A DNA stretch of 64,000 nucleotides from an uncultured Candidatus Saccharibacteria bacterium (GTDB lineage: Bacteria > Patescibacteriota > WWE3 > UBA101185 > 2-01-FULL-41-18), in contig CAZWQF010000006.1 in assembly GCA_964636285.1 (NCBI GenBank), forward strand, positions 938 through 64,937. The letters are read 5' to 3'. Positions 4,829 through 61,795 of the stretch are shown here, piece by piece. The notes below the pieces were generated by a model, which was not told where the DNA came from, made no database searches, and saw nothing but the letters and a program-made list of their open reading frames with translations. The stretch's first letter is position 1. Every line of letters starts with the position of its first letter. Made by a program: the position numbers and the translations under genes.

Positions 4829-4979
4829 GAGGTATTTATATCAGAAAAGAATTGAGGGTTGAAGATTTTGTAACGATGAGTTGTTTTAGAAAGTAGAAGA
4901 GCCGCCCGTATGTCCAGAAAAATCTGACAAACGAGCGGCCCTTGCCGGTCAAGTAAGGGTTGTGAGCGAAGCCCTAATT

Positions 4980-5288
4980 CTAGGCTTTGACGTTGATGGT
5001 GCCCGCACCCCACTCATTGTTACAAACTGAGCAGTGGTGATCCGCACCTGGGTGTCGAAGGCCTCCCTTGATGGTCACGTCCTTGGTCATCACGCTTTGA
5101 CAAGAGCCGTAGCACTGAGGGCAACCGCACCCACAAAGCTCAGGACCTTGGCTTCTTGCAGTCGGGTGGTAGCCCTGGACACTCTCGGCCGAACCTCCTT
5201 GACGCGGATTCCCGGCACCGGTCCCTGACCCCGAATTTCCAACGACCACGTTCTTCGTACGCCCGCCCCATAACGCTGACAAAGGCAT
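4980..5288 (-). CDS. small Gly/Cys-rich protein encoded in a GC-rich island (hypothetical; possible metal-binding protein or peptide precursor)
   Basis: The ORF has an AGAGGAT Shine-Dalgarno sequence 6 nt upstream of the ATG. A C-terminal Cys cluster reads CGCGCPQCYGSC...HHCSVCN. A GC-rich hairpin follows the stop. Local GC is far above the backbone. Confidence 0.45.
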   Translation of the reverse strand: MPLSALWGGRTKNVVVGNSGSGTGAGNPRQGGSAESVQGYHPTARSQGPELCGCGCPQCYGSCQSVMTKDVTIKGGLRHPGADHHCSVCNNEWGAGTINVKA

Positions 5289-5385
5289 GGTATCCTCTAT
5301 TCTTCTTGGGCTGCCGTTACAACAGCCTAGTTTTGTGTGAGGATTCTAACACTATAGGTATGCATTTATCAAATCCCAATAAACC

Positions 5386-8154: not shown

Positions 8155-8296
8155 ACTTGTCTTGAAAAAACCAGGCGTTATGCCTCACTTTCTCAAGCAA
8201 AACACATTCAACGGTATCAAGAGCCGTTTACCAATTTGTAAAAGGTCCTTGCGGAGTCAGTCTTCAAATTGGCTGTGTTCTCTACGAAGTCAGAGC

Positions 8297-8803
8297 TTAG
8301 TAGTCCCCACCCCACTCTGGATCGTCATAGTAGCCGTCTCTCAGACGTGCCCAGTCCAGAGCTTCAAGACTATGAGGACTCAAGGCCGGAGGAACAGGAA
8401 ACACCACCCCGGTTTGTTGAAAGAGAAAAGCTCTTCGAGCTTTCACCTCCAAAGCTTTCTGCTCCTCAAGAAGACGAAGCCTACCCTCCTCATTCTTCAG
8501 GTGCTTCTGAATATAAGGCCTGAGCTCAGATGGAAAGCTTCCCATCATGCTGGACAAGAGCTCCATAGAGGCCACATTGAACTCCGGGTCCTTGCCGTGC
8601 CACACCATTACGGTCAAGGGCGACTTGGCAACAACCACAATAGTAACTGGAAGCAATGCCCTGCCAGAGCGCCTCTGCCAAGCTTCGACCTGATGGCCAA
8701 TAAGAAGCTGAAGCTCCCAATGACTTTTGACCAAACCTTTGCTCCAGACACGGCCCGAGCACTCAACACCTTCCTCCCCAATCACAAAATAGTTGTATCT
8801 CAT
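8297..8803 (-). CDS. hypothetical protein encoded in a GC-rich island
   Basis: The true start is at MRYNYFVIGEEG, with a perfect AAGGAGG Shine-Dalgarno sequence 5 nt upstream. The longer ORF in the six-frame track reads through this sequence. The gene is GC-rich and has its own terminator. Confidence 0.55.
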   Translation of the reverse strand: MRYNYFVIGEEGVECSGRVWSKGLVKSHWELQLLIGHQVEAWQRRSGRALLPVTIVVVAKSPLTVMVWHGKDPEFNVASMELLSSMMGSFPSELRPYIQKHLKNEEGRLRLLEEQKALEVKARRAFLFQQTGVVFPVPPALSPHSLEALDWARLRDGYYDDPEWGGDY

Positions 8804-8955
8804 GACACCCTCCTTAGGCGTCAAGCCTGTTGTTGAATTTGGAAGATTCTACACTTTATCCACAGAATTATCAAATACTATAGGTTGGTTGGTTTGCTCT
8901 TTGATCCAAGACAGTTAAGGGCGCGCCAGTATACCCGTCGTGATATCATTACCTC

Positions 8956-15558: not shown

Positions 15559-16158
15559 TCAGTTGTCAGGCCAAGTGACCCTCACAAGAATTCCCCATTC
15601 TTGCTTGTCCCCAGGCTTGCATGGGTAAAACAGGATCTTATAGCCTCCAAACATGGAGACTTCCCCTGTACTCCCATCAAACTGGCTCGAAATCCTGTTT
15701 GAGTTGAACAGGAAGGGGTTCATGATTCGGGCCGAGTCCCTGGGGTAGTCTTCCCTGAGCAAACGGAGGGTATGGTCAGAGTCTCCATACCAGATTTCCG
15801 CCACTCGTTTCACAGTCTCTGGGTAGATGTCAGAAGCCTCCGCAACCGCGTAGTATGCGTCTACGCCATAAAGCGTGAAAATGCCGTGCCCAGATACCGA
15901 ATCGCCTGGAAAGTGACCAAATTTCTGCCCCTTCCAGACTACCTCGAAGCCCTCTGGAGCAACACACGGATAAGGCGCGAGCTCCCCTGGGTAGGCAACA
16001 TAGCGCTGAGGCAAAGTAAAAACCTGCACCACTTGATCGCTCAGCGTCGCAAACCCACCCCAGAACAGCGCAAGGACTGGAGTCAAAACCAACATACCTC
16101 CGACAAGGGCGGCCAACACCAGCTGTCTCCAGCTGAAGTTGTTGTTTTCCTGGCTCAT
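15559..16158 (-). CDS. membrane-anchored hypothetical protein in a GC-rich island (island C, gene 1)
   Basis: The start is at MSQENNNFSW, with a GGAGGT Shine-Dalgarno sequence 4 nt upstream. It has an N-terminal TM helix and a ~150-aa extracytoplasmic domain. GC is far above the backbone. Confidence 0.5.
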   Translation of the reverse strand: MSQENNNFSWRQLVLAALVGGMLVLTPVLALFWGGFATLSDQVVQVFTLPQRYVAYPGELAPYPCVAPEGFEVVWKGQKFGHFPGDSVSGHGIFTLYGVDAYYAVAEASDIYPETVKRVAEIWYGDSDHTLRLLREDYPRDSARIMNPFLFNSNRISSQFDGSTGEVSMFGGYKILFYPCKPGDKQEWGILVRVTWPDN

Positions 16159-16268
16159 ACTACCTCCATGGCGCCACAATGTGTTTGCACTATGGCCTAG
16201 AATTATTTGCTCCAACAAACAAGTAATTGCCTATGGCAGTTACCTTACTTAGACCCAAAGAGCTTACC

Positions 16269-16784
16269 CTATTCTTGTGCCCCAAGGTTTAGAGGGCGCA
16301 CCCTCCACAAGAACGTATCTCCTGTAACAGAACACTCTCCAAAATCAAAGGTCGCTCCTTCAATTGAGATGTAACCCCACTGCTCTATTGCGGAACCTGC
16401 CGGACCCCTAGAGCCGTTTTCAAAAGCATAGGGGACTAAAACGTACCTGTTGGGACTCCCCTCCACGGTGGTCTTGGTAATTGAATACCAGCGAGTCTCG
16501 CTTTTGAACCACATCTCCTTGATGGCCACCAAGCGCCACTCAAACAAGCCACCTGGATGCTCTACCAAACGCAGCTCTCTCTGTGTCGGCCCGTATGAGG
16601 AGACACGCAATTCACCAAGGTCCCCTGCCAAAATGTTGAAGTCTTTGGCAAGAACTCCTCCACTACACATGGTCTTTAAAAGATTGGTGTAGTGATCAAT
16701 GATCGTAGGCATCAGTGTAAAAAAAGCGGTTCCACACACGATGACTACTAGAGGAACGAGAATCCAGGGATTAAACCTTCTCAT
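16269..16784 (-). CDS. membrane-anchored hypothetical protein in a GC-rich island (island C, gene 2)
   Basis: An AGGAGG Shine-Dalgarno sequence lies 4 nt upstream of the ATG. It has an N-terminal TM helix and a ~140-aa extracytoplasmic domain, the same architecture as the gene downstream. Confidence 0.5.
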   Translation of the reverse strand: MRRFNPWILVPLVVIVCGTAFFTLMPTIIDHYTNLLKTMCSGGVLAKDFNILAGDLGELRVSSYGPTQRELRLVEHPGGLFEWRLVAIKEMWFKSETRWYSITKTTVEGSPNRYVLVPYAFENGSRGPAGSAIEQWGYISIEGATFDFGECSVTGDTFLWRVRPLNLGAQE

Positions 16785-19838: not shown

Positions 19839-20297
19839 ATGAAAGCATCAAAAATATATTTTGCGTCTGACCATGGCGGTTTTGGACTAAAAGGAAAGCT
19901 ACTAGAGTTTACAAAATCCCTTGGGTATAGTGTTGAGGATTTAGGACCGGAGAAACTTGATCCAAGTGACGATTACCCAATCTTTGCAAAAAAGATTGCT
20001 GAAAGGGTAGCAAAAGAGCCTGAAAGCTTAGGAGTAATTTTGTGTAGAAACGGAGTTGGAATTTCCGTAGCCTGTAATAAAGTTGACGGGGCAAGATGCG
20101 CTTTATCCTGGAACTCAAAGCACGCTTCCTCAACCAGAAAAGATGATAATGCCAATGTGATTTCAATACCTGCAGATTATGTAGAAAAAACCCAGGCAGA
20201 AGAGATGCTTAAAGCTTTTTTTGAAACCGAGTATGTGCATAACGAGAGATTTGATAGAAGATTAAATGAAATAAAAGACATAGAAAGTTCAAATTAG
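19839..20297 (+). CDS. rpiB: ribose-5-phosphate isomerase B
   Basis: N-terminal IYFASDHGGFGLK; RpiB/LacAB family; 152 aa. Confidence 0.8.
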   Translation: MKASKIYFASDHGGFGLKGKLLEFTKSLGYSVEDLGPEKLDPSDDYPIFAKKIAERVAKEPESLGVILCRNGVGISVACNKVDGARCALSWNSKHASSTRKDDNANVISIPADYVEKTQAEEMLKAFFETEYVHNERFDRRLNEIKDIESSN

Positions 20298-20312
20298 TTA
20301 TAATCAAAACTT

Positions 20313-20957
20313 ATGCAAAAAGTCATCATTCCGGGAATACTTGAAAAAACACTCGAGGAAATAAAGGAAAAACTTGAGGAGGTTGAAAGCATGACGCCTC
20401 TAGTTCAAATTGATGTTGAGGATGGGACTTTCACAAACGCAACTACCTTTTGCGATGTAGATGCGCTAAACGAGCTTGATACATCTGCAATACTTGAGCT
20501 TCATTTGATGGTTCAAAATCCTAAAAACTTTATCCCAAAGTTTCCAAAAGCAGTAAGAAAATTAATTTTCCATATTGAAAGCCAAGGGCTATACAGGGAA
20601 ATCATAGAAGATGTAGAAGAAAGAGGCTTTGAGGTTTGCCTATGTTTAAACCCCGACACGCCTTTTGAAGACGTGGAGCCGTTTCTTGAGTTTGCTGGAT
20701 CTGTTCAGTTCATGACTGTAAATCCGGGAGTACAAGGTCAAAAATTCCTTCCTGAAGTCCTTGAAAAAATTAAAGCTTTTACTGATGAGTACCCTCAGAT
20801 ACCTGTTGAGGTTGATGGGGGAATAAATCCTCACACCGCAAGCCTTTCGGCACAAGCAGGGGCTTCCCTTTTTGTATCTGGAAGCTATATATTAGACAGC
20901 GAAGAGATCAAGAAAAATATAGAAAGTTTAGAGGAGGCAATTGAAAATGAAGATTAG
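20313..20957 (+). CDS. rpe: ribulose-phosphate 3-epimerase
   Basis: IDVEDGTF, HLMVQNP, MTVNPGVQGQKF, VEVDGGIN motifs. Confidence 0.8.
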   Translation: MQKVIIPGILEKTLEEIKEKLEEVESMTPLVQIDVEDGTFTNATTFCDVDALNELDTSAILELHLMVQNPKNFIPKFPKAVRKLIFHIESQGLYREIIEDVEERGFEVCLCLNPDTPFEDVEPFLEFAGSVQFMTVNPGVQGQKFLPEVLEKIKAFTDEYPQIPVEVDGGINPHTASLSAQAGASLFVSGSYILDSEEIKKNIESLEEAIENED

Positions 20958-21525
20958 TAATGTTTCTTTTTTAGGTGGTGCTGAAGTAAAGCAGGATTCT
21001 CCAGTGTACAAAGACGCTGTGGAGGTTGCCAAGGTTTTAGCCGAATCAGGTATCAAAATTTTAAATGGCGGTGGACCAGGAGTAATGAAAGCATCCACAG
21101 AAGGAGCCCATCTTGGAGGCGGCAAAGCAGTAGGAGTGACTTTTTATCCAAAATATAAGCATGCACATTTTGAAGGCAGGGACCATGAAAATAATTTTGA
21201 CGAGGAAGTGGTCTGCAATGATTATTTTGACAGGACACAGAGACTTCTTGAGATGGGAGATGTTCACATATTGTTTGCAGGAGGAACCGGCACATTAAGC
21301 GAATTTGGAATGAGCTGGGCAGTAGCAAGAATTCACGAAGGCCACAACATCCCTATCATTCTTTTTGGAGATTTTTGGAAAAATGTAATTCAATCTTTTA
21401 AAGAGAACCTCATGATAAGGCCTGGAGAAGAAGAGCTGTTTAGAATTGTAAGCACTCCTCAGGAAGCTTATTTTACAGTTAAGGAGCTTGAGGGTCTGGA
21501 AAAACCCTACCCAATACCTCAGTAA
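20941..21525 (+). CDS. LOG family protein (TIGR00730-like, Rossmann-fold nucleotide-binding)
   Basis: GGGPGVM and GGTGTLSEF motifs. Confidence 0.7.
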   Translation: MKMKISNVSFLGGAEVKQDSPVYKDAVEVAKVLAESGIKILNGGGPGVMKASTEGAHLGGGKAVGVTFYPKYKHAHFEGRDHENNFDEEVVCNDYFDRTQRLLEMGDVHILFAGGTGTLSEFGMSWAVARIHEGHNIPIILFGDFWKNVIQSFKENLMIRPGEEELFRIVSTPQEAYFTVKELEGLEKPYPIPQ

Positions 21526-21528
21526 TAA

Positions 21529-22635
21529 ATGCCGTCAAAAAACTGGTTCACATTGCCCCGATTGTTGTTATTCCTTGCTTGCGCGGTGCTTGCAGTTGCA
21601 ACTGTGTACTTAAAAGCAAGTCTTGAAAAAAAGCTTTCTCCGGAAAAACAAGAAATCAATCCAAAAGAACAAATCGAATCAAAAGGAAGCACAGACCGGG
21701 GAAAAGACATAAAAAGCCAAGGAGGAGATGTAACCCAAAAAGATACAATCTACACACCAGGAAGCGTTGGCCAAACGTTTGAGATACCAGTAAGAAACCA
21801 AATCCAAACAAGCTATTTTGATCCCGTGTTTAAAAGAGGTGATGGCCTTGAAGGCTTCTACCACAACAACAAGACCCTTAACGATCTCAAACTAAAAAGA
21901 GTAGATAAAATGATCTCAGTCCAAACAAGTGCTGGTGCAACGCCAAACAACGCCATTACGTCCGATGACTACTCTATTAGGTGGGAAGGCCAGATTTACG
22001 CCCCGGTAACTAGTGACTATAATTTTTACTTTTCAGGGGATAACGCAGTTATTAAACTTTGGGTGGAAAACACACAACTTTCTTTTGCACAGCTTAGAGG
22101 TGAAGACATTAGAATTCCCATTCATTTGGAGGAGAAACAAAGGTATGAAGTAAAAATCGAAATGTATAAAGCAAGAAGCGATTTAGGGGCTTCTTTTAAG
22201 CTTTTATGGGAATTTGATGGCCAACCAAAAATTCCAGTTCCAGCCGAGTACATGTTCACTCAAAAGCTCCCCGCAATGCTCGATGTTCCCATTAAAAATG
22301 AGGATTTTACAGACGGAAAAGCTCAATATGGTTTGAAAGTTGCAAGGAGCGGATTTTACTACCCTTGGGTTAAAGTCTTCACCGCAAGCAAAGATAGAGA
22401 TACTTTTGAAATGCAAATTGATGATCGAATATACGTGTTTGAACTTCCTTCAACTGCTTCTCAATGGATGTGGTTAAAACCATTTTTGGTTGAAAGTTCT
22501 TCGCAAAACAAAGTTGCTACGGCTTATGTTGCTCGAGGTAATAGGGTTATGACAATCTCAAAACTTGAACCAAATATAAAACTTGAACGAATAATTTTGG
22601 TGGACAGCGCCGACTATGCGCCAGACAAGCAGTAA
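21529..22635 (+). CDS. membrane-anchored PA14-domain protein
   Basis: N-terminal TM; PA14-like core YSIRWEGQIYAPVTSDYNFYFSGDNAVIKLWV. Confidence 0.55.
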   Translation: MPSKNWFTLPRLLLFLACAVLAVATVYLKASLEKKLSPEKQEINPKEQIESKGSTDRGKDIKSQGGDVTQKDTIYTPGSVGQTFEIPVRNQIQTSYFDPVFKRGDGLEGFYHNNKTLNDLKLKRVDKMISVQTSAGATPNNAITSDDYSIRWEGQIYAPVTSDYNFYFSGDNAVIKLWVENTQLSFAQLRGEDIRIPIHLEEKQRYEVKIEMYKARSDLGASFKLLWEFDGQPKIPVPAEYMFTQKLPAMLDVPIKNEDFTDGKAQYGLKVARSGFYYPWVKVFTASKDRDTFEMQIDDRIYVFELPSTASQWMWLKPFLVESSSQNKVATAYVARGNRVMTISKLEPNIKLERIILVDSADYAPDKQ

Positions 22636-22693
22636 AGCTACTGCTAACTTACCTACAAGGGGCGATATTCAAAATACGTGGCCTTAAGCAGCA

Positions 22694-22737
22694 AAAGACC
22701 CCGCAAAATTCGTGTGAACAAATCGTGCGGGGTCTTT
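22694..22737. terminator. bidirectional rho-independent terminator hairpin (AAAGACCCCGCA-N20-TGCGGGGTCTTT)
   Basis: A 12-bp GC-rich stem. A U-tract follows it on the minus strand (UUUUGCUGC). It closes both the PA14 gene (+) and the island D operon (-). A G9 homopolymer follows at 22746-22754. Confidence 0.6.
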
Positions 22738-22847
22738 AATCCTCTGGGGGGGGGTATCAGCCGACCTGAACTTGATAAAACCCCGGCCCCTTAGCTTCAA
22801 GCTTCTTCCGCTCAATGAGCGAAATCGTCGCCGACTTTGCAACGCCC

Positions 22848-22994
22848 TCAAGCGGGTTGGGGGTTGGACAACGTCAAGATGCCGCCTTGGTGTCTGAGCG
22901 CGTTGCCCACAACCTCCTTAAAGTTGTACGCCATAGAGGCGTTGGCAGGTTGGAAAGCATTCACCCCATCCCAGTACACAAGCATCTGGTTCAT
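22848..22994 (-). CDS. small hypothetical protein (48 aa), second gene of the GC-rich island D operon
   Basis: ATG preceded by a GGATGAG Shine-Dalgarno sequence; translates MNQMLVYWDGVNAFQPANASMAYNFKEVVGNALRHQGGILTLSNPQPA. Confidence 0.4.
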   Translation of the reverse strand: MNQMLVYWDGVNAFQPANASMAYNFKEVVGNALRHQGGILTLSNPQPA

Positions 22995-23010
22995 GGTAGG
23001 CTCATCCTTT

Positions 23011-23307
23011 CTAAGGCTGAGCGATGAGCGTTGCTTTGAGCACCTGACCTTTCCAGTCAAGAGTGAGCTCATACAGCGCCCCCACGACGAGATTTTCGCA
23101 GGGTTGCGTTTTCTCACCATGCATATGGACACAGTGCAGGGTTTCCTGAACGCCAACCCTTCTGGAGTAGCCTTCAAGCGACAACCCTTCTTTGCCGTTC
23201 TTGATGGCATTGAAGGTGTCCATGCGATCCTTCTTGGCTACGTTCGCCACAGAGATATCCTGCCCTCCCTTGGAATTGAGGAAAAACACTGACTTGATAG
23301 TTGCCAT
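23011..23307 (-). CDS. small hypothetical protein (98 aa), first gene of the GC-rich island D operon
   Basis: The start is MATIKSVFFLNSKGG, with an AGGAG Shine-Dalgarno sequence 7 nt upstream. The gene is GC-rich. The longer ORF in the track is an in-frame upstream extension. Confidence 0.45.
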   Translation of the reverse strand: MATIKSVFFLNSKGGQDISVANVAKKDRMDTFNAIKNGKEGLSLEGYSRRVGVQETLHCVHMHGEKTQPCENLVVGALYELTLDWKGQVLKATLIAQP

Positions 23308-23491
23308 TTCGATACTCCTCGGCCATAGGCCGCTTGCGGGATACCCAATCGTTTGAATTATCCCATAGTAAATTGATGTTTGAAATCTTACACCCAAAAG
23401 CCCATCCGGTCAACCTTAGAAAACCCGGCCATCAGGCCTTAAAACCACCTAACATTGTCTTAAAACCTCAAATCTTCTATACTTTCATTTA

Positions 23492-24349
23492 ATGCCACAA
23501 GAGCACATCTCAAAAACGTTAGCTCAAAAAGCCAATGACATTCGTCAATCCATTATCAGCATGCTTATCAATGCAGGGTCTGGGCACTCAGCAGGCCCAC
23601 TAGATATGGCAGACATCTTTGCTACATTATATTTTCATGTTTTAAACGTTGATCCAGAAAAACCGTATAAAGACGACAGGGATTACGTACTTTTATCTTG
23701 CGGGCACATTTGCCCTGTTTGGTACGCAACCTTAGCTCACAGAGGCTATTTCCCACAAAAAGAACTTTTAACGCTGAGAAAGCTTGGAACAAGACTTCAA
23801 GGACACCCCCACATCCATGCTCTCCCTGGGATTGAAAACACATCAGGACCACTTGGCCAAGGTTTGTCACAAGGAGCGGGCATTGCACTAGGATTAAAAA
23901 TGCAAGGCAAAACAAGCCAATTTGTTTATGTAATAGGATCAGACGCTGAGTTCCAAGAAGGCCAGGTGTGGGAAGCAGCAATGTTTGCTTCAAAAAATCA
24001 ACTGGGCAATCTTATCTGGATAATCGATAGAAATAACATTCAAATTGACGGCTACACAGAAAGCGTCATGCCAATAGAGCCTCTCAGGGAAAAGCTTGAA
24101 GCCTTTGGTTGGTACACACTTGAGGTGGACGGGCACAATCACCAAGAAATAATTTCTGCTTGCGAACATGCAAAAGCCGTGTTCAACAGACCTACCGTAA
24201 TCGTAGCCCACACAATTGCAGGTAAAGGTGTTGATTTTATGGAATATAAATACGAATGGCATGGAAAAGTCCCATCGCCAGAAGAGGCAAAAGAAGCCCT
24301 CAATGAACTTAGAACACTTGGTGGTAAAATAGTTAGCGAGCATCAGTAA
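23492..24349 (+). CDS. transketolase, N-terminal (TPP-binding) subunit
   Basis: GHSAGPLDMADIF and the TPP motif GSDAEFQEGQVWEA...NLIWIIDRNNIQIDG. This is the split-transketolase architecture. Confidence 0.8.
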   Translation: MPQEHISKTLAQKANDIRQSIISMLINAGSGHSAGPLDMADIFATLYFHVLNVDPEKPYKDDRDYVLLSCGHICPVWYATLAHRGYFPQKELLTLRKLGTRLQGHPHIHALPGIENTSGPLGQGLSQGAGIALGLKMQGKTSQFVYVIGSDAEFQEGQVWEAAMFASKNQLGNLIWIIDRNNIQIDGYTESVMPIEPLREKLEAFGWYTLEVDGHNHQEIISACEHAKAVFNRPTVIVAHTIAGKGVDFMEYKYEWHGKVPSPEEAKEALNELRTLGGKIVSEHQ

Positions 24350-24371
24350 AGTTGCTCCAGAAAGGCTTTAA

Positions 24372-24932
24372 ATGTCGGAATCACAAACAACTCAACCAAC
24401 ACAAACAAAATCCAATAAGATGGTTAACATCGCTATCTATACTGCCGTTTTTCTTGTAATGGGTTTTCTAATTCTATACTTTGTAGGACCAAAGTTTGGA
24501 ATTAACCTTTTTGGAAAGGGCAAGGACGCTAACAACATTGAGTACTCAAGAGTAGATGGCTTTCCAAGAGCCTTCAACACTGCAGAACAGGTAAACAAGG
24601 CAAGACTCGTCATTAAAACCGAAGAAGAACTCAAGCAAGCAATCTCAAACATAGATAAATCAGGTGAGATCAAACTTCCTAAAATTAACTTTGAAAAGAA
24701 AATGGCCCTTCTTGTTACATCAAAGACAAGAAACACAGGAGGTTATGAGACACGAATCAGAAAAATCGAATTAGATAAAGACGATTTGGTAGTCACAATC
24801 AGGGATCAGGAACCAGGTAAAACCTGTATGACTACACAGCAATTAAACGTACCTATGGACTTAGTAGTACTTGATAAGACCGACCTGTCCATTGAATGGC
24901 AAGTCAGGCAGGAAGTTAAAGAATGCAACTAA
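24372..24932 (+). CDS. membrane-anchored hypothetical protein (possible PrcB_C-like domain) inserted between the transketolase halves
   Basis: N-terminal TM; a C-terminal GGYETRIRKIELDKDDLVVTIRDQEPGKTCMTTQ region resembling PrcB C-terminal domains. Confidence 0.4.
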   Translation: MSESQTTQPTQTKSNKMVNIAIYTAVFLVMGFLILYFVGPKFGINLFGKGKDANNIEYSRVDGFPRAFNTAEQVNKARLVIKTEEELKQAISNIDKSGEIKLPKINFEKKMALLVTSKTRNTGGYETRIRKIELDKDDLVVTIRDQEPGKTCMTTQQLNVPMDLVVLDKTDLSIEWQVRQEVKECN

Positions 24933-25891
24933 ACCCAAAGATCTACCAGCCCGATGTTGAACAAAAACCAAATCGAATGGGATTTGGCGAAGGGCTTTTG
25001 GTGGCTGGGGATGAAAACCCTGACGTTGTGGCACTCTGCTGTGATTTAAAAGAGTCCACAAGAGTTGACCTTTTTGCATCAAAATATCCAAACAGATACG
25101 TGGAGTTAGGTGCCGCAGAACAAAACATGGCAGGCGTGGCAGCTGGCCTTGCTATAACAGGCAAAATTCCGTTTATCACTTCGTATGCTACTTTTAGTCC
25201 TGGAAGGAACTGGGATCAGATCAGAGTTTCAATTTGCTACTCAAACAATAATGTGAAGATTGTGGGCTCCCATTCGGGAATATCAGTTGGACCTGATGGG
25301 GCAACACACCAAGCTTTAGAAGATATTGCAATAACAAGAGTCTTGCCAAACCTAGTGGTGATTGCACCATGTGACGCTATAGAAGCAAAAAAAGCCACAA
25401 TTGCATCCGCAAAATACAAAGGCCCTGTATACATTAGACTTGCTAGAGAAAAAACTCCAATCATTACAACGGAGGATACTCCATTTGAAATTGGAAAATC
25501 TCAAGTTTTTAGAGAAGGAAATGCAATTACCGTGGTTGCAACAGGAACCTTGGTCTATGACGCACTCATTGCAGCGGAAGAACTCATGCGCGAAAGGGCG
25601 ATTGCAGTAGAAGTGATAAACTGCCCAACAATCAAACCTTTAGATGGTCAAACAATTCTTAAGTCTGTTAAAAAAACTGGTGCACTTATTACAGTGGAAG
25701 AACACCAAATTGACGGAGGTTTTGGAAGCGCAGTTTGTGAGTTTATTTCTGAAACCCACCCTGTTAAAGTTAAAAGAATCGGAATGCCAAACAGCTTTGG
25801 CGAATCCGGCCAACCCAGAGAACTTCTTGAAAAATATGGAATGAGTAAAAACCATATCAAGAATGCGATCAGAGAAATGATTGCCCAGTAG
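24923..25891 (+). CDS. transketolase, C-terminal (pyrimidine-binding) subunit
   Basis: The Pyr domain and the C-terminal domain of a split transketolase; ~320 aa. Confidence 0.8.
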   Translation: MQLNPKIYQPDVEQKPNRMGFGEGLLVAGDENPDVVALCCDLKESTRVDLFASKYPNRYVELGAAEQNMAGVAAGLAITGKIPFITSYATFSPGRNWDQIRVSICYSNNNVKIVGSHSGISVGPDGATHQALEDIAITRVLPNLVVIAPCDAIEAKKATIASAKYKGPVYIRLAREKTPIITTEDTPFEIGKSQVFREGNAITVVATGTLVYDALIAAEELMRERAIAVEVINCPTIKPLDGQTILKSVKKTGALITVEEHQIDGGFGSAVCEFISETHPVKVKRIGMPNSFGESGQPRELLEKYGMSKNHIKNAIREMIAQ

Positions 25892-26924
25892 TCTCAGAAA
25901 CACCAAAGTTTGGGACTTTAAACTGTCCTTAAAGTCTATGTACGATATTATTTCAATGGGCGATTCAGTAATTGACGCCTTTACAGTAATCAGTGAAGCC
26001 GAAGTCCTCTGCCACTTAAGCGAGCAGGATTGTAGGCTGTGTTTAAGCTATTCGGATAAAGTTCCCGTAGATAAATTTAAATTAACAACAGCAGGCAACG
26101 CTTTAAATAATGCGGTAGGGTCAGCAAGGCTTGGGCTTAAGACAGCTTTATACACAGAAATTGGCAATGACATGTTTGGAAAAATGATTGTGGACAAAAT
26201 GATGCAAGAAAAGATATCAACTGATTATGTAAACTTAAATAAAGGCGCAGCTACAAATCTTCACACTGTACTTTCATACAAAGTTGAAAGGACTATACTT
26301 GTCTATCACGAACCAAGAAGTTACAAACTCCCTCAGTTTGAAGAGGCACCAAAGTGGATCTACTATACTTCGCTTTCAAAAGGCTTTGAGAAAGTTCAGG
26401 AGGAGCTTGTTAATTACCTGTACGCAAACCCTGAAGTTAAACTTGCTTTTAACCCGGCAACTTTTCATTTAAGAGCGGGACTGGATGCGTTAAGGGAGAT
26501 AATCAAGAGAACGGAAGTTATTTTTATTAATCGCGAAGAGGCAAAAAGGCTTTTAAACATTGATCTAAAAGAACCCACACCTATTAAGGAGCTCCTTTCA
26601 AAGATTCACGAGCTTGGGGTTAAGACTATAATTATTACTGATGGCCCAAAGGGGTGTACTGTTTACGATGGAAAAGATTACGGACAGCTTGGGCTGTACG
26701 ATGTTCCGATTGTGGAAAGAACAGGAGTTGGCGATGCATTTGCTACAGGTTTTATAGCCGCGCAGGTCTATGGAAAAAACCTTGAGGAATGTCTTAAGTG
26801 GGGAACTATTAACTCTGCAGGGGTTATTCAGGAAATAGGGCCTCAGGACGGACTTCAAACTAAAGACCAGATTGAAAAAGTTTTAGCTTCAAATCCAGTT
26901 TTTACCCCAGTAAATCTTCTTTAA
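25881..26924 (+). CDS. PfkB-family carbohydrate kinase (ribokinase-like)
   Basis: C-terminal motif TGVGDAFATGFIAA, the DTxGAGD-type anion hole. The true start is probably the downstream Met in MYDIISMGDSVIDAF. Confidence 0.7.
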   Translation: MPSSLRNTKVWDFKLSLKSMYDIISMGDSVIDAFTVISEAEVLCHLSEQDCRLCLSYSDKVPVDKFKLTTAGNALNNAVGSARLGLKTALYTEIGNDMFGKMIVDKMMQEKISTDYVNLNKGAATNLHTVLSYKVERTILVYHEPRSYKLPQFEEAPKWIYYTSLSKGFEKVQEELVNYLYANPEVKLAFNPATFHLRAGLDALREIIKRTEVIFINREEAKRLLNIDLKEPTPIKELLSKIHELGVKTIIITDGPKGCTVYDGKDYGQLGLYDVPIVERTGVGDAFATGFIAAQVYGKNLEECLKWGTINSAGVIQEIGPQDGLQTKDQIEKVLASNPVFTPVNLL

Positions 26925-27004
26925 CCTCAATTGAACATATTACTATAAGCTGTTATTATCCGTTTTAACAACCTATTAGCGACTCATGAAAGGAGTCATC
27001 ACAC

Positions 27005-27631
27005 ATGTTGGATTTCTTCATCCTTGAATCCATCCTTAGGGTGGATCTCAGCCTCACAGCGTCCATGCAGGTGGTGCTGTGGGGAATGGGGGCGCCCTAC
27101 CTGGTTTTGGCGATCCTGGCACTTTTCCGTGGCGCCAAACCGCCTGACTGGGGAGCAACTGTGTCCTTGATCGGTATGTTCCTGGCGACCCCGGTGCTGG
27201 GACCTCTGTCCGCCCACCTACTCTGGTCTCTTGCGGACCTTCCGTTCAACTGGCGGGACGTGCAGTGCCACTGGAGCGCCTCAAACCTCTGGCACTTCCT
27301 GAACGGGATCCAGTTATGGGGAGAGCACCTCAAGTGGGACATCACGGACAAAGACAGCCAGGGACGGGCGCCGTACATTGCAGAGGCCATTATCTCCATC
27401 TTGCTCGGAGGCTTATGGACCGTGCTTCTGCTCTGGGTGTTTGGAGGAGGCCTTAGCGTGGAGGAGTTGTGGGTCGGGCTGGTCTACTTTTACGGGATGC
27501 AAGGGATCATGAACTGGGCGCAGGACACAGGGCCACTTGGACGCCCTCTGGCCGACTACATCGGAAAGAGCAGCCTGGTGGCATTCCTGTTTCACTTGGC
27601 CTTGGCCCTCATCTATCTTATCGCCCGGTAA
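27005..27631 (+). CDS. hypothetical polytopic membrane protein encoded in a GC-rich island (island E)
   Basis: An AAAGGAG Shine-Dalgarno sequence lies 9 nt upstream of the ATG. The protein has 5-6 TM helices and is Trp-rich. GC is ~65%. A strong terminator follows immediately. Confidence 0.55.
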   Translation: MLDFFILESILRVDLSLTASMQVVLWGMGAPYLVLAILALFRGAKPPDWGATVSLIGMFLATPVLGPLSAHLLWSLADLPFNWRDVQCHWSASNLWHFLNGIQLWGEHLKWDITDKDSQGRAPYIAEAIISILLGGLWTVLLLWVFGGGLSVEELWVGLVYFYGMQGIMNWAQDTGPLGRPLADYIGKSSLVAFLFHLALALIYLIAR

Positions 27632-27644
27632 GACAGAGGACCAG

Positions 27645-27692
27645 AAACGGTCGGGGATTACTGACGCACGTCAGCCCCGACCGTTTTTTCTA
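27645..27692 (+). terminator. rho-independent terminator (AAACGGTCGGGG-loop-CCCCGACCGTTTTTT)
   Basis: A 12-bp perfect stem followed by T6. Confidence 0.75.
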
Positions 27693-27956
27693 TTTATTAA
27701 AGGCTACTTTTACTTCTTTGGAGCCACAAAGCATACACTCAAAGTTATTTCCTTCGGACATGCATGAAGGGCAAAGATAAAGCCCTCCTTGGTATACCAA
27801 GTCTTTGGTGTCGCACGTGTTACACAAAAATGCCACATCATCTTGACTCACTTTTCCACACTTTGGGCATGTAAATTCGGCCCCTTCGCCATCTGTAACT
27901 ACTTTTGCTTGTTCCTCTTTATCTAGCTTATCAAAGTTATATACATGCTTTTTCAT
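27690..27956 (-). CDS. small zinc-ribbon protein (four CxxC pairs)
   Basis: CPKC...CNTC...CPSC...CMLC; 88 aa. Confidence 0.5.
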   Translation of the reverse strand: MKKHVYNFDKLDKEEQAKVVTDGEGAEFTCPKCGKVSQDDVAFLCNTCDTKDLVYQGGLYLCPSCMSEGNNFECMLCGSKEVKVAFNK

Positions 27957-39127: not shown

Positions 39128-39202
39128 TGGTGCCAGCGGTAGGAATTGAACCTACAACATGAGCTTTATGAGGGCTCCGTTCCACCATTGAACTACGCTG
39201 GC
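39128..39202 (-). tRNA. tRNA with CAT anticodon (elongator tRNA-Met, or tRNA-Ile2 if lysidinylated)
   Basis: A cloverleaf folded by hand. The acceptor stem is GCCAGCG/CGCTGGC, the D-stem GTTC/GAAC, the anticodon loop CTCATAA, the T-loop TTCAATT. The 3' CCA is encoded. Confidence 0.75.
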
Positions 39203-39291
39203 AAACACCGCAGATATAGTTAACTCAGTGGATTATATCAAATTGTTGTAAAAATAGGGAAGCTTAGAGCTATGGGATAATAGGGACTTTT

Positions 39292-39365
39292 GGTTGCGGG
39301 GCCCGGATTCGCACCGGGACCTTCAGATTATGAGCCTGACGAGGTGCTATTCCTCCACCCCGCGT
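39292..39365 (-). tRNA. initiator tRNA-fMet (CAT)
   Basis: The sequence CGCGGGGTGGAGG...GGCTCATAATCTGAAGGTCCCGG TGCGAAT CCGGGCCCCGCAACCA has a C1:A72 mismatch. It is near-identical in its ends to canonical bacterial tRNA-fMet. The anticodon is CAT. Confidence 0.8.
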
Positions 39366-41168: not shown

Positions 41169-42908
41169 ATGATACTATATTTACACATGGACTTTTTCAT
41201 TGAGTTAAGCACACTGCTCTTACTTACTCTCTCAGTTTCTATTGTTATGAGGCTTTTAAAACAGCCTCTCATAATAGGTTATATATTTGCTGGTATTCTT
41301 GCAGGGCCTCATTTTCTAAACCTACTTAAGTCCCCTGAAATAGTTGAGGTGTTTTCAAAATTTGGAATTGAAGTGCTTTTGTTTATTGTGGGACTAGGGC
41401 TTAGCCCAAAGGTTGTAAAGGAACTGGGTAAAGTATCGCTGGCAACAGGCGCAGGTCAAGTTGTAGCAACATCAGTAATTGGATACTTTATTGGCACAGC
41501 ACTTGGATATAAAAGTTTAGAAGCTGCATATATCTCTATTGCTTTAACATTTAGCAGCACAATAATCATCTTAAAACTTCTATCTGACAAAGGAGACGTA
41601 AATAAACTTTACGGTCGAATAGCTGTAGGCTTTCTACTCGTTCAGGACCTTGTAGCAACAATGTTACTTGTTTTTGTATCAGCCGCATCCTCTGCTTCTG
41701 GACAAGCAAACCCTGCGGCAACGGTGTCATTAATATTCCTAAAAGGTATTGCTCTACTTGTTCTCCTCTTTGCAATCTCAAACTACCTTCTCCCAAAGCT
41801 AGAATCTTTTTTGGCAGGATCCCAAGAACTTCTCTTTATTTTTTCACTCGCATGGGGAGCAGGTATAGGCAGTTTGTACTATATCAGTGGCCTTTCGATT
41901 GAAATCGGAGCTCTTGTTGCAGGAGTTTGCCTTTCAATGACACCTTACGCAGGAGAAGTTGCCTCAAGACTTAAGCCTCTTAGAGACTTTTTTATTGTAA
42001 TGTTCTTCTTGTTTTTAGGGTCTCAGATGTCCGGCGCAAATTGGCAAAACATGATTGTTCCAATTATTGTTTTCTCTCTATTCATTCTTGTTGGTAACCC
42101 CTTAATCATGCTCATTGTAATGAACATTCTAGGGTTTAGCACAAGGACAGGTTTTCTTAGTGGACTCCTTGCAGCTCAGATCAGCGAATTCTCCCTCATA
42201 TTAATTGCGCTTGCATATAAAGTTGGTCATATCTCAAACGAAGTAGTCTCAATGGTAACAATCGTGGGTGTAATTACAATTTCAGGGTCTACTTATTTAA
42301 TCCTTTCTGGCGAAAAGCTTTACGAGTACCTAAAAGGACACCTCAAACACTTTGAGATCAGAAAACAAAGATCAGAAAAAGACGAAAACCCAGGCCGATA
42401 CGATGCCATTCTTTTTGGCTACCATAGAGTTGGTAGGGATTTTGTGGACCTGTTTAAAAGGCTAAACTTTGAGTATCTTGTAATAGATTTCAATCCAGAA
42501 GCTATCAGAAAACTCACGGAAAGTGGAATCCCAAACAGGTATGGCGACGTTGAGGACATAGAGTTTTTGGACGAGCTTCCGTTAAATGAGGTTAAACTTG
42601 TTGTGTCCACAGTTCCGGATTATGATGCAAACCTGCTTCTTGTTAAACGAATAAGAAATGCGAACCAAGCCACTTCCGTAATTGTAATATCAAAAAACAT
42701 TGAAGACGCCCTAGATCTATACAACTCAGGTGCAAGTTATGTTGTAATGCCTCACTACCTAGGCGCAAAGTTTGCAAGCCAAGTTATATCAAGAAACAAC
42801 ATAAACCCAAACACAATGCTACAAGAAAGAGAAGCTCACATAGAATATTTGAAGAAAAAACTCCTGGTGGGTCAGGATGGGATCGAACCATCGACATCCA
42901 CTTTATAA
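41169..42908 (+). CDS. monovalent cation:proton antiporter (CPA2/Kef-type) with C-terminal RCK/TrkA-N domain
   Basis: Twelve or more N-terminal TMs of the Na+/H+ exchanger family, and a C-terminal Rossmann-like RCK domain (ILFGYHRVGRDFVDL). The last ~15 codons are antisense to the tRNA-Ile gene. Confidence 0.75.
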   Translation: MILYLHMDFFIELSTLLLLTLSVSIVMRLLKQPLIIGYIFAGILAGPHFLNLLKSPEIVEVFSKFGIEVLLFIVGLGLSPKVVKELGKVSLATGAGQVVATSVIGYFIGTALGYKSLEAAYISIALTFSSTIIILKLLSDKGDVNKLYGRIAVGFLLVQDLVATMLLVFVSAASSASGQANPAATVSLIFLKGIALLVLLFAISNYLLPKLESFLAGSQELLFIFSLAWGAGIGSLYYISGLSIEIGALVAGVCLSMTPYAGEVASRLKPLRDFFIVMFFLFLGSQMSGANWQNMIVPIIVFSLFILVGNPLIMLIVMNILGFSTRTGFLSGLLAAQISEFSLILIALAYKVGHISNEVVSMVTIVGVITISGSTYLILSGEKLYEYLKGHLKHFEIRKQRSEKDENPGRYDAILFGYHRVGRDFVDLFKRLNFEYLVIDFNPEAIRKLTESGIPNRYGDVEDIEFLDELPLNEVKLVVSTVPDYDANLLLVKRIRNANQATSVIVISKNIEDALDLYNSGASYVVMPHYLGAKFASQVISRNNINPNTMLQEREAHIEYLKKKLLVGQDGIEPSTSTL

Positions 42909-42939
42909 GAGTGGCGCTCTACCACTGAGCTACTGACCC
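42865..42939 (-). tRNA. tRNA-Ile (UAU anticodon, gene TAT)
   Basis: The sequence GGGTCAGTAGCTCAGTGGTAGAGCG CCACT CTTATAA AGTGG ATGTC GATGG TTCGATC CCATC CTGACCC A CCA folds into a perfect cloverleaf. The acceptor and D arms are Ile-like. Confidence 0.8.
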
Positions 42940-58706: not shown

Positions 58707-59540
58707 ATGAAATCGCGCAAATACCTGCTTTTTTTAATACCTATAGTTATCATAGTTTTACTAACTTATATCATTATTAGACAAAGTTCAAGAATTATGA
58801 TGAGTCCTGTAGTTAAATCTAGTTTGACAGGAGGTTCCACAAAACTTTTGGAGATAGTGGAAGCACTTGAGTCGAGCGAATCGAGCACATCAAGCAAAGG
58901 ATCAAAGATTCCAAATCCCCTAGCCTTTGTTGCTGACCTTTTTAAAGAAAAATACCCTGTACACAAAGATATAAGCACTACCTTTTTTTGGGTTGGAGAA
59001 CCTTCCGATGAGGATAACCATTTTATTCCTAACAAAGCGAGCGCTTGGGATGACGAATGGATGAAGCATTACGGTGGTCCTGACGATCCCGAAAAAAGAA
59101 AAAACCTCCTTCCCGAAAACTTTAAGCCAAAAGAAAACCCATTTTACTTTGCGCTTCCCTACAATGATTTTGATGAAGATGGAAAAAGACGAAAAGATTT
59201 AAGTAAGGTTGTATATTGGTTTGACCAAAAAAAGTGGGGTAAAGAGGAGTCTATGCTAAAAAATAGGTGGATAAAAATAACCAAGGGGGATAAAGACGCC
59301 TATGCGCAGTGGGAGGATGTAGGTCCTTTTGGAGAAGATGACGCCAAGTATGTCTTTGGTAAGTCCGCTCCAAAAAATAAAGACAACAAAAGTGCAGGTC
59401 TTGATGTCTCGCCTGCCGTAAAAGAATACTTAGGTCTTAAAGATTTGGATAAAACAGATTGGCAATTTGTTGATGAAAAGGACGTACCTGATGGCCCTTG
59501 GAAAGAGGTTATAACCAAATCTCAGGTTAATTGGAAATAA
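58707..59540 (+). CDS. hypothetical secreted or membrane-anchored protein
   Basis: N-terminal TM; Ser-rich linker; no motif. Confidence 0.45.
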   Translation: MKSRKYLLFLIPIVIIVLLTYIIIRQSSRIMMSPVVKSSLTGGSTKLLEIVEALESSESSTSSKGSKIPNPLAFVADLFKEKYPVHKDISTTFFWVGEPSDEDNHFIPNKASAWDDEWMKHYGGPDDPEKRKNLLPENFKPKENPFYFALPYNDFDEDGKRRKDLSKVVYWFDQKKWGKEESMLKNRWIKITKGDKDAYAQWEDVGPFGEDDAKYVFGKSAPKNKDNKSAGLDVSPAVKEYLGLKDLDKTDWQFVDEKDVPDGPWKEVITKSQVNWK

Positions 59541-59554
59541 CTTTAATTATGTCA

Positions 59555-59591
59555 AAAGCGCCGTTGGGTTTTTTGCCCGCCGGCGCTTTTT
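59555..59591. terminator. bidirectional rho-independent terminator (AGCGCCG-loop-CGGCGCTTTTT)
   Basis: A GC-rich stem flanked by T5 on the plus strand and A/T-rich sequence on the minus strand. Confidence 0.55.
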
Positions 59592-59602
59592 GAGACTTTT
59601 TG

Positions 59603-59839
59603 TTAGGCAACTCCAAGACAGCTCGCCAGCTCATTGAACGCCACATCCGAGCCGTCCGTTTTCCAGTGATGGTTGGCATAAAAAGCCGCAGTTTGCCACC
59701 CCGCAAAATACCTAAGAAAGGCCCCAACATTGTCTCCACTCATCCGATTCATCATGCTGGCAAGAGCTTCTCTTGGGTTCTCGCTTCCCTTGACGCTCTC
59801 AACCATTTGGTCATATTTGGAGGTGTCGAGAAGTTCCAT
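59603..59839 (-). CDS. small hypothetical protein (78 aa) in a GC-rich island (island H)
   Basis: A GGAG...AGAGG Shine-Dalgarno region is upstream. The gene is GC-rich. A C9 homopolymer lies upstream at 59929-59937. Confidence 0.4.
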   Translation of the reverse strand: MELLDTSKYDQMVESVKGSENPREALASMMNRMSGDNVGAFLRYFAGWQTAAFYANHHWKTDGSDVAFNELASCLGVA

Positions 59840-59980
59840 TTTAACCTCTAGCTCCTGTGAAAGCAGGATACTTGTGGGTTATATATTACCCTATAGTGCG
59901 AGTTTTTACAAACCAGTCTGCCTTCCTTCCCCCCCCCTCATTCTATTGCGGTTTTCTTCGGGTTTTATTAAAATACCACT

Positions 59981-61378
59981 GTGTTCCCCAGGAAAATGAC
60001 ATTTGTAGATGTCGAAACAACCGGCGGCTCGTACAGGCGAGACCGAATAATAGAAATAGCTCTTATCCAAACCGAAGACGGAAAAATAACAAGTACCTTT
60101 CAATCATTAATTAATCCAGAACAACGGGTTCCAGAGTCAATTCTTGAAATGACAGGGGTTATACAGGCAGAGCTTGAAAAGGCGCCTACTTTTAGTGAGG
60201 TAGTGCAAGAAGTGGGGGAGCTTTTGGCCGATTCGGTTTTTGTTGCTCACAACGCAGCGTTTGATTACGGATTTGTTAAAAACGAATTTAGACTCCTTGA
60301 GAAGAACTATTCTGCAAAATGTCTCTGTACGGTCAAGTTATCAAGAGCACTATTCCCAAGCTACAGGTCTCACAGTCTTGATAGCCTGATAAAAAGATTT
60401 GGGTTTGAGGTTAATAATAGGCATAGGGCTTATGATGACGCCAAAGTAATGGTTGATTTTTTTGATCTTGTAAAATCTCAATTTGAACCTGAAAAAATAG
60501 AAAAAGCTGTGAGCGCTATTCTTAAAAGGCCTTCAATTCCTGTTCGTATCTCAGAGAAAAAGCTTAATAGTTTGCATGAAGGGCCTGGAGTATATATTTT
60601 TTATGGCGACACGGGGATTCCGCTATACATTGGAAAGAGCGTGAGTGTTAGGGATAGGGTTCTTTCGCACTTTTCTGCGTCTAGCTTTTCAAGTACCGAG
60701 CTAAATATTGCTTCGCAAATAAAAGATATTGAAGTTATAAAGACGGAAGGGGAGCTTGGAGCTTTATTAAAGGAATCGGAGCTTATAAAAAGGATGCTAC
60801 CTGTGTATAACAAAAGGCTTAGGGTTGTTGAGAACCTGGCTTATATTAAAGGCGGGATAAACAGCCAGGGGTATAAAACTATTTTTCTTACTACTGATGC
60901 TCTTGAGGAGGGGGAGACCCTTGGAATTTTTAAAACTCAAAAACAAGCTAAAGATAGAATTGAGGAGCTTTGTGAAAAGCATAGGCTTTGTAAGAAGCTT
61001 CTTGGGCTTGAAAAATCTCACACAAAAGGACAATCGTGTTGTTTTGGGCATCACCTTGGGAAGTGTAAAGGTGCTTGTGTGGGCGAGGAGCCTGCAAAAA
61101 TGTACAACCTTAGATTTGATATGGCATTTGTGGAGACAAAGCTTAAATCCTGGCCTTTTAAAGGTCCTGTTTTAATAACCGAAGGAGACTCGGCTGTTAT
61201 TGTTGATAACTGGGTCTGCAAAAGTGTAGAAACAAATATTTCAGAGGTGCCTTTGGGAAAAGAAGGGTTGCCTGATTTAAGTGGTTTGCACGAGACAAAA
61301 TTTGATCTGGATACCTACAAGATTCTTTCAAGTTACATTTTTTCAAAGAAAAACCAGAAAAATATAAAGGTGATGTAG
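59981..61378 (+). CDS. Cho-like nuclease: DnaQ/epsilon-type 3'-5' exonuclease domain fused to a GIY-YIG (UvrC-like) endonuclease domain
   Basis: DEDDh motifs FVDVETTG, HNAAFDYGF, HRAYDDAK; a GIY-YIG motif GVYIFYGDTGIPLYIGKS...R. Confidence 0.7.
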   Translation: MFPRKMTFVDVETTGGSYRRDRIIEIALIQTEDGKITSTFQSLINPEQRVPESILEMTGVIQAELEKAPTFSEVVQEVGELLADSVFVAHNAAFDYGFVKNEFRLLEKNYSAKCLCTVKLSRALFPSYRSHSLDSLIKRFGFEVNNRHRAYDDAKVMVDFFDLVKSQFEPEKIEKAVSAILKRPSIPVRISEKKLNSLHEGPGVYIFYGDTGIPLYIGKSVSVRDRVLSHFSASSFSSTELNIASQIKDIEVIKTEGELGALLKESELIKRMLPVYNKRLRVVENLAYIKGGINSQGYKTIFLTTDALEEGETLGIFKTQKQAKDRIEELCEKHRLCKKLLGLEKSHTKGQSCCFGHHLGKCKGACVGEEPAKMYNLRFDMAFVETKLKSWPFKGPVLITEGDSAVIVDNWVCKSVETNISEVPLGKEGLPDLSGLHETKFDLDTYKILSSYIFSKKNQKNIKVM

Positions 61379-61453
61379 GAGGTAGAAAAGGCACCCCTAC
61401 GAATATACATAGAGGTGCCTCCCTCACAACAAGGTTCGAGATGCGCGTCTTTT

Positions 61454-61702
61454 TCAGCCTTGCAGGCTCTGCTGGACGCCAATCATGTAACAGGAATCTT
61501 TTCCGGTTGCGCCGGGGTGTCCTGGGATTGGCGCTTGAAGGATGGTGTCCATGGCGTTCGCAACATCCTGGGGCATGTCAGCTCTGTTTGCTGGGCGTGG
61601 CTGGTCAACCCACCACTCATGAAACTTTTCCCATGCCCGTTTGACCACGTCCGGGTATTGTTCATGCTCTTCTGGAAGAATCGGAATTCCTCGCGGTAGC
61701 AT
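61454..61702 (-). CDS. small hypothetical protein (82 aa) in a GC-rich island (island I)
   Basis: A TAAGGAGA Shine-Dalgarno sequence lies 8 nt upstream. The gene is GC-rich. A hairpin at 61389-61420 is downstream. Confidence 0.4.
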   Translation of the reverse strand: MLPRGIPILPEEHEQYPDVVKRAWEKFHEWWVDQPRPANRADMPQDVANAMDTILQAPIPGHPGATGKDSCYMIGVQQSLQG

Positions 61703-61795
61703 CAGTGGGTCTCCTTACTTTTGTAGCGATTGTTGTGAGGGCTTTATTATAAAACTTTAAACCTATAGCATCAAATTGATTTTTCCCTGAAAAAA

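Follow-up and report, generated by a model that had tools for sequence, protein, structure and literature searches.

What is the short, GC-rich piece of DNA that lies antisense inside a pentose-phosphate gene cluster of a Patescibacteria (candidate phyla radiation, CPR)-type genome, and does it carry genes of its own? The question is raised by island D, an islet of high guanine plus cytosine (GC) content in a 64-kb stretch of contig CAZWQF010000006.1 (hereafter the window, in which all coordinates are given and whose mean GC is 0.40). The islet has a GC of about 0.52-0.55 and holds, on the minus strand, two small consecutive open reading frames (ORFs), ORF1 of 98 amino acids (aa) and ORF2 of 48 aa, followed by a hairpin that is shared with a convergent gene encoding a PA14 domain. 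An earlier reading of the DNA made without database searches (the sequence-only reading) had seen here a GC-rich cassette of two genes, each with its own Shine-Dalgarno sequence, bordered by a tract of nine G residues (G9), and had likened it to toxin-antitoxin or immunity modules. Inspection of the sequence confirms the two ORFs, the TAG stop with its spacer, the hairpin and the G9 tract, together with their coordinates (Table 1); the likeness to toxin-antitoxin modules is taken up in the last section.

The reading favoured here, at a probability of roughly 0.5, is that island D is a horizontally acquired, self-contained transcription unit on the minus strand of the pentose-phosphate cluster, comparable to a phage moron or a genomic islet. 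A sigma-70-like promoter within positions 23357-23413 would drive a single mRNA, from which ORF1 would be translated by way of a strong GAGGAG site and ORF2 probably by re-initiation or coupling, 16 nucleotides (nt) past the ORF1 stop. The transcript would end at the hairpin (22737-22694 in the direction of the cassette), which would also halt the convergent PA14 transcript. The 48-aa product of ORF2 may act as a partner peptide of ORF1, and the cassette as a whole would represent moron- or islet-like accessory cargo expressed independently of its neighbours. As to what such cargo would do, a role in conflicts between genomes (defence, anti-defence, or toxin and immunity) and the lack of any selected role yet appear about equally likely.

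Coding evidence for ORF1 and ORF2

Half of the six frames run open through the islet: one on the plus strand, with an ORF of 151 aa, and two on the minus strand, with ORFs of 120 and 128 aa. Length alone is not significant here, since an ATG-initiated ORF of at least 90 codons occurs in 26% of dinucleotide shuffles of the region (3000 shuffles). Coding potential was scored as log-odds from the dinucleotides at codon positions 1 and 2 of 32 host genes, for which the mean is 0.199 bits/codon in frame and -0.23 bits/codon off frame. On this scale ORF1 reaches a host-like 0.187 bits/codon, a value that no ORF of at least 90 codons attained in any of the 3000 shuffles. The antisense 151-aa ORF scores -0.03, and a search of the protein collection found no homologue of it, not even a database entry of its own. 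The GC content of ORF1 by codon position is 0.56/0.35/0.64, as against about 0.52/0.35/0.33 in host genes, and its frequencies of G at position 1 (0.35) and of A at position 2 (0.35) are the same as theirs. ORF2 displays values of 0.53/0.39/0.71, and in both ORFs the deviation from the host is confined to the synonymous position, with a third-position GC (GC3) of 0.64-0.71 versus about 0.33. Because its codon-phase composition is host-like except at GC3 and is unmatched in the shuffles, ORF1 looks like a normal protein written in foreign synonymous codons, and it is very probably a real protein-coding gene. With these values, and with an overall GC well apart from that of the window, the description of the islet as GC-rich stands, and its composition is foreign.

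The codon-phase signature of ORF1, which has host strength and was never reached by shuffling, also counts against reading the islet as non-coding, be it a GC-rich structured RNA, a fragment without function or a chimeric assembly with DNA of a higher-GC organism. GC-rich intergenic islands in AT-rich genomes are indeed a classic signature of structured RNA; island D (22740-23320) folds better than its dinucleotide shuffles on both strands (z of -2.6 and -2.4, where 16 host coding segments taken as a control range from -1.8 to +1.8), and a G9 tract lies at its edge. The folding excess, however, is modest and symmetrical between the strands, and Rfam gives no match either at gathering score or at an expectation value (E) of up to 1. 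As for a chimera, it would presuppose two exact misassemblies, and the same at seven or more islets; the intact genes that carry on the syntenic host cluster on either side of island D make it unlikely. An islet devoid of coding function seems, all in all, extremely unlikely.

Regarding ORF2, the coding signal is weak, at 0.08 bits/codon or 3.9 bits for the whole ORF, and similar to that of an antisense ORF considered further below, the Shine-Dalgarno sequence is poor, no homologues can be found, and open frames are frequent at the GC content of the islet, as the shuffles show. All of this would fit a cassette in which ORF1 is the sole gene and ORF2 a chance open frame in a GC-rich 3' untranslated region of about 270 nt ending at the hairpin. 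On the other side, the GC content of ORF2 by codon position parallels the coding pattern of ORF1, and ORF2 takes over from ORF1 as the best-scoring frame at about 23050-23000, right where the two meet. Moreover, an ATG placed 16 nt past the ORF1 stop is a typical coupled layout, and the single-sequence model of ORF2, with a hairpin and a helix, is not disordered (predicted local distance difference test, pLDDT, of 68). We regard a cassette with a single gene as rather unlikely and the translation of ORF2 as moderately probable.

The public annotation (P0005) gives ORF2 a length of 74 aa, from an ATG at 23072, with a 62-nt overlap with ORF1. In its frame, the N-terminal extension has the score of non-coding sequence (-0.12 bits/codon), so this start is probably mis-called and the 48-aa ORF2 the better call. 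The same stretch bears on the possibility that a single gene of about 150 aa was broken into ORF1 and ORF2 by a +1 frameshift, through a sequencing or assembly error or as a pseudogene. A frameshifted gene had been the initial impression of the sequence-only reading before it settled on two consecutive genes; ORF2 is indeed in frame +1 with respect to ORF1, and its frame is open upstream to 23210. However, the ORF1 frame is coding-like up to its stop, and the upstream part of the ORF2 frame is non-coding-like (-0.12 to -0.21 bits/codon). At the junction between the two the stop is clean and a Shine-Dalgarno-like motif precedes the ATG, and the spacer contains no homopolymer suggestive of an assembly frameshift. 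Residues 88-96 of ORF1, right before its stop, form the final and best-scored beta-strand of its model, and neither half has a longer homologue. A single disrupted gene is very unlikely on these grounds, and the coding frames and the clean junction uphold two consecutive small ORFs, with translation of the second moderately supported.

Expression signals, hairpin and homopolymer

The intergenic region between ORF1 and tktN measures 184 nt and is common to the cassette and to the divergent tktN. It contains the sigma-70-like matches listed in Table 1, and the candidate promoter of the cassette is a 9-of-12 consensus match, a class barely enriched in the scanned region, with 8 examples found as compared with 4.6 expected. 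As regards translation, the claim that each gene has its own Shine-Dalgarno sequence holds for ORF1, whose GAGGAG motif is read directly from the sequence, and only in weakened form for ORF2, which is preceded by AGGA at 10 nt or GAG at 6 nt 5' of its ATG. The spacer would be short enough for translational coupling from ORF1 to ORF2.

Table 1. Island D, its signals, the neighbouring genes and further GC-rich islets, as positions in the 64-kb window
Feature	Position	Strand	Remarks
ORF1	23307..23011	-	98 aa plus TAG stop; MATIK...IAQP, start MATIKSVFFLNSKGG, end LIAQP
Shine-Dalgarno GAGGAG	23320-23315	-	7 nt 5' of ORF1 ATG
ORF1-ORF2 spacer AAAGGATGAGCCTACC	23010-22995	-	16 nt between ORF1 stop and ORF2 ATG
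ORF2	22994..22848	-	48 aa plus TGA stop; MNQMLVYWDG...NPQPA; probable small gene
Sigma-70-like match TTGACC-17-TAAGAT	23413..23385	-	consensus match only
Sigma-70-like match TTCAAA-16-TG-n-GATAAT	23384..23357	-	consensus match only; overlapping with the other match, the two together at 23357-23413
G9 homopolymer	22746..22754	+	C9 on cassette coding strand; 3' untranslated, between ORF2 stop and hairpin
Hairpin	22694..22737		between convergent PA14 gene (plus strand, stop 22635) and ORF2 (minus strand)
GC-rich islet, extent	22641..23300		GC of at least 0.50 in 150-nt windows; 0.52 overall
rpiB	19839 (start)	+	neighbouring gene; cluster spans 19839-26924
rpe	20313 (start)	+	neighbouring gene
LOG/SLOG-like gene	20941 (start)	+	neighbouring gene
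PA14-domain gene	21529..22635	+	convergent with cassette
tktN	23492..24349	+	divergent from cassette
PrcB_C-domain gene	24372..24932	+	between the two transketolase halves
tktC	24923 (start)	+	neighbouring gene
pfkB	25881 (start)	+	neighbouring gene
Further GC-rich islets	4891-5360, 8211-8830, 15591-16210, 16351-16680, 26961-27710, 59541-59840, 61371-61740		GC 0.50-0.56

On the tktN side of the same region, a promoter-like TTGTCT-17-TATACT ends 8 nt before the ATG at 23492, and no Shine-Dalgarno sequence is present in the segment 23455-23494; the tktN mRNA may be leaderless or almost so.

The hairpin is located 58 nt past the stop of the PA14 gene and also 3' of ORF2, a position from which it could terminate both transcripts. 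Its outer stem of 12 base pairs (bp) is perfect and G+C-rich (AAAGACCCCGCA/TGCGGGGTCTTT) and encloses a 20-nt loop that is partly paired. Over the 20-nt arms complementarity amounts to 85%, so that of the perfect shared hairpin previously described the sharing with the PA14 gene stands and the perfection is restricted to the outer stem. The 81-nt stretch 22680-22760, which includes the hairpin, folds with about -31 kcal/mol on each strand, and the hairpin is followed by T4 on the minus strand and by a weaker TTTAAT on the plus strand. Judged by these features, it is likely to be a bidirectional intrinsic terminator.

In transcript sense, about 110 nt of GC-rich untranslated sequence extend from the ORF2 stop and are followed by C9, the complement of the G9 tract, and then by the hairpin. 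Since the tract is outside the coding frames, a change in its length would flip the frame of neither ORF1 nor ORF2. Runs of nine G or C are found only twice in the 64 kb, namely this G9 and a C9 at 59929-59937, when, by our estimate, chance would yield about 0.07 over the whole window. Both are noncoding and stand at the edges of GC-rich islets, D and H respectively, and their orientation relative to the islet genes is inconsistent. They are possibly an integration scar, a product of slippage or a sequencing feature.

The two proteins and their genomic context

ORF1 and ORF2 each match only themselves among 5.8 billion protein clusters (about 15 billion proteins). Nothing above noise can be found for either in Pfam, PHROGs, NCBIfam or PADLOC, PDB sequence searches give no significant match, and phage and plasmid collections and viral contigs searched with the cassette contain no relatives. 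They are strict orphans in both sequence and profile searches, as the absence of a recognisable family noted in the sequence-only reading had suggested. The few leads obtained were rejected. An exhaustive phmmer search of ORF1 against 1.84 billion representatives returned, besides ORF1 itself, three matches to eukaryotic HRM, ankyrin and low-complexity repeat proteins, with scores inflated by repeat summation. One plasmid match (E of 0.5, under an IS5 transposase) is noise. A match to NCBIfam PRK11432 (C-terminal, TOBE-like region of FbpC) has an E of 0.02, reaches 13.8 bits where the cut-off is 496, and is backed neither by a Pfam TOBE model nor by a PDB sequence match.

Structure prediction, which had been proposed for both proteins, gave mediocre models. 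The single-sequence AlphaFold2 model of ORF1 has a beta-alpha-beta-beta-beta order (pLDDT 60.7, predicted template modelling score 0.48) and, compared with PDB and BFVD by Foldseek, no match at E < 0.3; that of ORF2 consists of a short beta-hairpin and a helix at residues 19-36 (pLDDT 68.3). ORF1 harbors a cluster of histidines and cysteines, H58, C59, H61, H63 and C69, in which C59-x-H61-x-H63...C69 is disposed around a predicted hairpin turn. From the model, ORF1 is possibly a small alpha+beta domain with C59, H61, H63 and C69 as a candidate metal site. Inspection of the two sequences reveals neither a signal peptide nor a transmembrane segment, ORF2 (MNQMLVYWDGVNAFQPANASMAYNFKEVVGNALRHQGGILTLSNPQPA) being devoid of any hydrophobic stretch of transmembrane length, and both products are near-neutral in charge; they would be cytoplasmic.

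Island D is antisense within a pentose-phosphate cluster of the order rpiB-rpe-(LOG-PA14)-tktN-tktC-pfkB. The order rpiB-rpe-tktN-tktC-pfkB is kept in the 22 related loci used for comparison, where the gap between rpe and tktN usually measures 20-60 bp, and neither the DNA nor the proteins of island D are present in any of the 22. A search of 185,579 species genomes and of the JGI metagenomes puts the closest TktN sequences at 65-68% identity, which limits this absence to a comparison with distant relatives; these sequences belong to metagenome-assembled genomes of Patescibacteria of the Doudnabacteria and Woykebacteria type. Two of the 22 loci have LOG directly 5' of tktN, and in several more the rpe/tktN junction is occupied by unrelated inserts on the plus strand whose GC is host-like. 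Considering that this gap is short in relatives and receives occasional unrelated inserts, the islet sits in a variable junction, or hotspot. It is a lineage-specific, compositionally foreign addition in antisense orientation.

More generally, unrelated inserts recur in related Patescibacteria at two junctions of the cluster, rpe/tktN and tktN/tktC. The inserts found here are LOG, PA14 and island D at the former and the PrcB_C-domain gene at the latter. A scan of genome contigs with the PA14 protein found no relatives, and its clustering with two 57-aa proteins is an artefact, these being plainly unrelated.

At least seven such GC-rich islets (GC of 0.50-0.56 versus 0.40) can be found in the window, of which GC-rich orphan islets make up about 8%. 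Their ORFs have no Pfam or PHROG match, and those present in the collection of about 15 billion proteins are singletons. A protein comparison of islet against islet detected no relationship among them, and a comparison of their boundary k-mers yielded no common end motif. In islets B, C, D and H, minus-strand ORFs lie between plus-strand host genes. Foreign and orphan genes are usually AT-richer than their host. Orphan DNA that is GC-richer than the host is unusual, and this genome-wide pattern is the slightly more interesting point.

The architecture of islet H (59541-59980) is like that of island D, with the end of a plus-strand host gene at 59540, a terminator hairpin (about 59556-59592), an orphan ORF of high GC on the minus strand (59839..59603, 78 aa), the C9 run and the next plus-strand host gene. 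Another islet ORF, 27005..27631 on the plus strand, encodes 208 aa that read like a multi-pass membrane protein and has a GC3 of 0.76. Also in the window are a tRNA-Ile gene whose anticodon, TAT (UAU), is uncommon (42865-42939) and, next to each other, two tRNA genes that bear CAT as anticodon (39128-39202 and 39291-39364).

Several points weigh against the self-contained, acquired transcription unit that we favour. The coding signal of ORF2 (3.9 bits) is about equalled by that of an antisense 70-aa ORF (22815..23027, plus strand; 5.3 bits), although the latter has no Shine-Dalgarno sequence and would have an atypical pattern of GC1 above GC3. With no relatives, neither ORF has support for selection from conservation, from the ratio of nonsynonymous to synonymous substitutions (dN/dS) or from covariation. 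The promoter of the cassette is taken from a consensus match only, and the confidence of the AlphaFold models is low to moderate, as the pLDDT values given above show, with no significant neighbour in fold space. Neither an integrase, a transposase, a tRNA nor flanking direct repeats mark the arrival of the DNA, and no direct or inverted repeats of 9 nt or more flank island D. Finally, the functional part of the reading is drawn from the class of element to which the islet would belong, not from direct evidence.

If the cassette is real and expressed, a core pentose-phosphate operon would here harbour foreign DNA in antisense, and two protein families without relatives among about 15 billion sequences would join the accessory genes of a host-dependent bacterium of ultra-small size. 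Such a pattern is already well known from orphan genes and genomic islets, and without a phenotype or a recurring family no new question is opened by one more example. A bolder proposal would hold both that ORF1 and ORF2 are the founding members of a new small-protein conflict module of the CPR (toxin-antidote, anti-phage or anti-defence) and that the GC-rich islets, two of them with 9-nt G/C borders, reflect an undescribed route of capture into operon junctions; this combination is a long shot.

Comparison with known systems

Island D resembles type II toxin-antitoxin operons in having two small, close and co-directional genes, with a promoter region of their own and one terminator. Were it a toxin-antitoxin pair of type II or similar, or a toxin-immunity pair, one product would poison and the other neutralise it by binding; the 16-nt spacer would suit such a pair, as would the foreign islet and the expression signals that come with it, and toxin-antitoxin and immunity cargo is common in variable hotspots. 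The gene layout is, however, the sole feature of these systems that island D displays. The toxin and antitoxin models of Pfam, NCBIfam and PADLOC were scanned to E values of up to 10 without any match to a toxin, antitoxin or defence family, the sub-threshold matches being to unrelated families. Specifically, neither ORF matched the type II toxin folds or families (RelE/ParE, MazF/CcdB, VapC-PIN, HicA, Doc/Fic, GNAT, Zeta, HipA and others). No antitoxin DNA-binding domain (RHH, HTH, AbrB/SpoVT, Phd/YefM) appears in the Pfam searches, and none, nor any RHH, HTH or AbrB-like element, appears in the low-to-moderate-confidence models of the two proteins. Sizes and charges are atypical as well, 48 aa being short for either partner and the near-neutral products not forming a pair of basic and acidic proteins. 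A type I system finds no better match, as ORF2 is without a hydrophobic segment and Rfam reveals no antitoxin RNA. Furthermore, toxin-antitoxin families are widespread and mobile, whereas this pair was found once among about 15 billion proteins and recurs nowhere. The toxin-antitoxin or immunity interpretation of the sequence-only reading is consequently judged decidedly unlikely.

Phage morons are autonomous units of promoter, gene and terminator, of deviant base composition, that stand between conserved genes, a concept that stems from the lambdoid phages HK97 and HK022. In contrast to them, island D is part of a chromosomal metabolic operon, not of a prophage, and is antisense to the surrounding genes. 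No PHROG match is found in the cassette, in the other islets or nearby, nor does any phage gene lie in the vicinity, and the neighbours are pentose-phosphate and housekeeping genes. Like morons, it is short, lies between genes that are adjacent in relatives, deviates in base composition from its neighbours, and combines promoter-like sites, a factor-independent terminator hairpin and one or two small orphan genes.

With regard to the genomic islets and ORFans of Patescibacteria, for which horizontally acquired regions are reported to reach up to 13% of genome length (PMC12455944), island D differs in being GC-richer than its host, in measuring only about 0.7 kb and in having no mobility gene, tRNA target or flanking repeat. 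It shares with them an atypical composition, the lack of homologues and the absence from the corresponding locus of relatives, and it occupies a junction that is variable in other members of the group.

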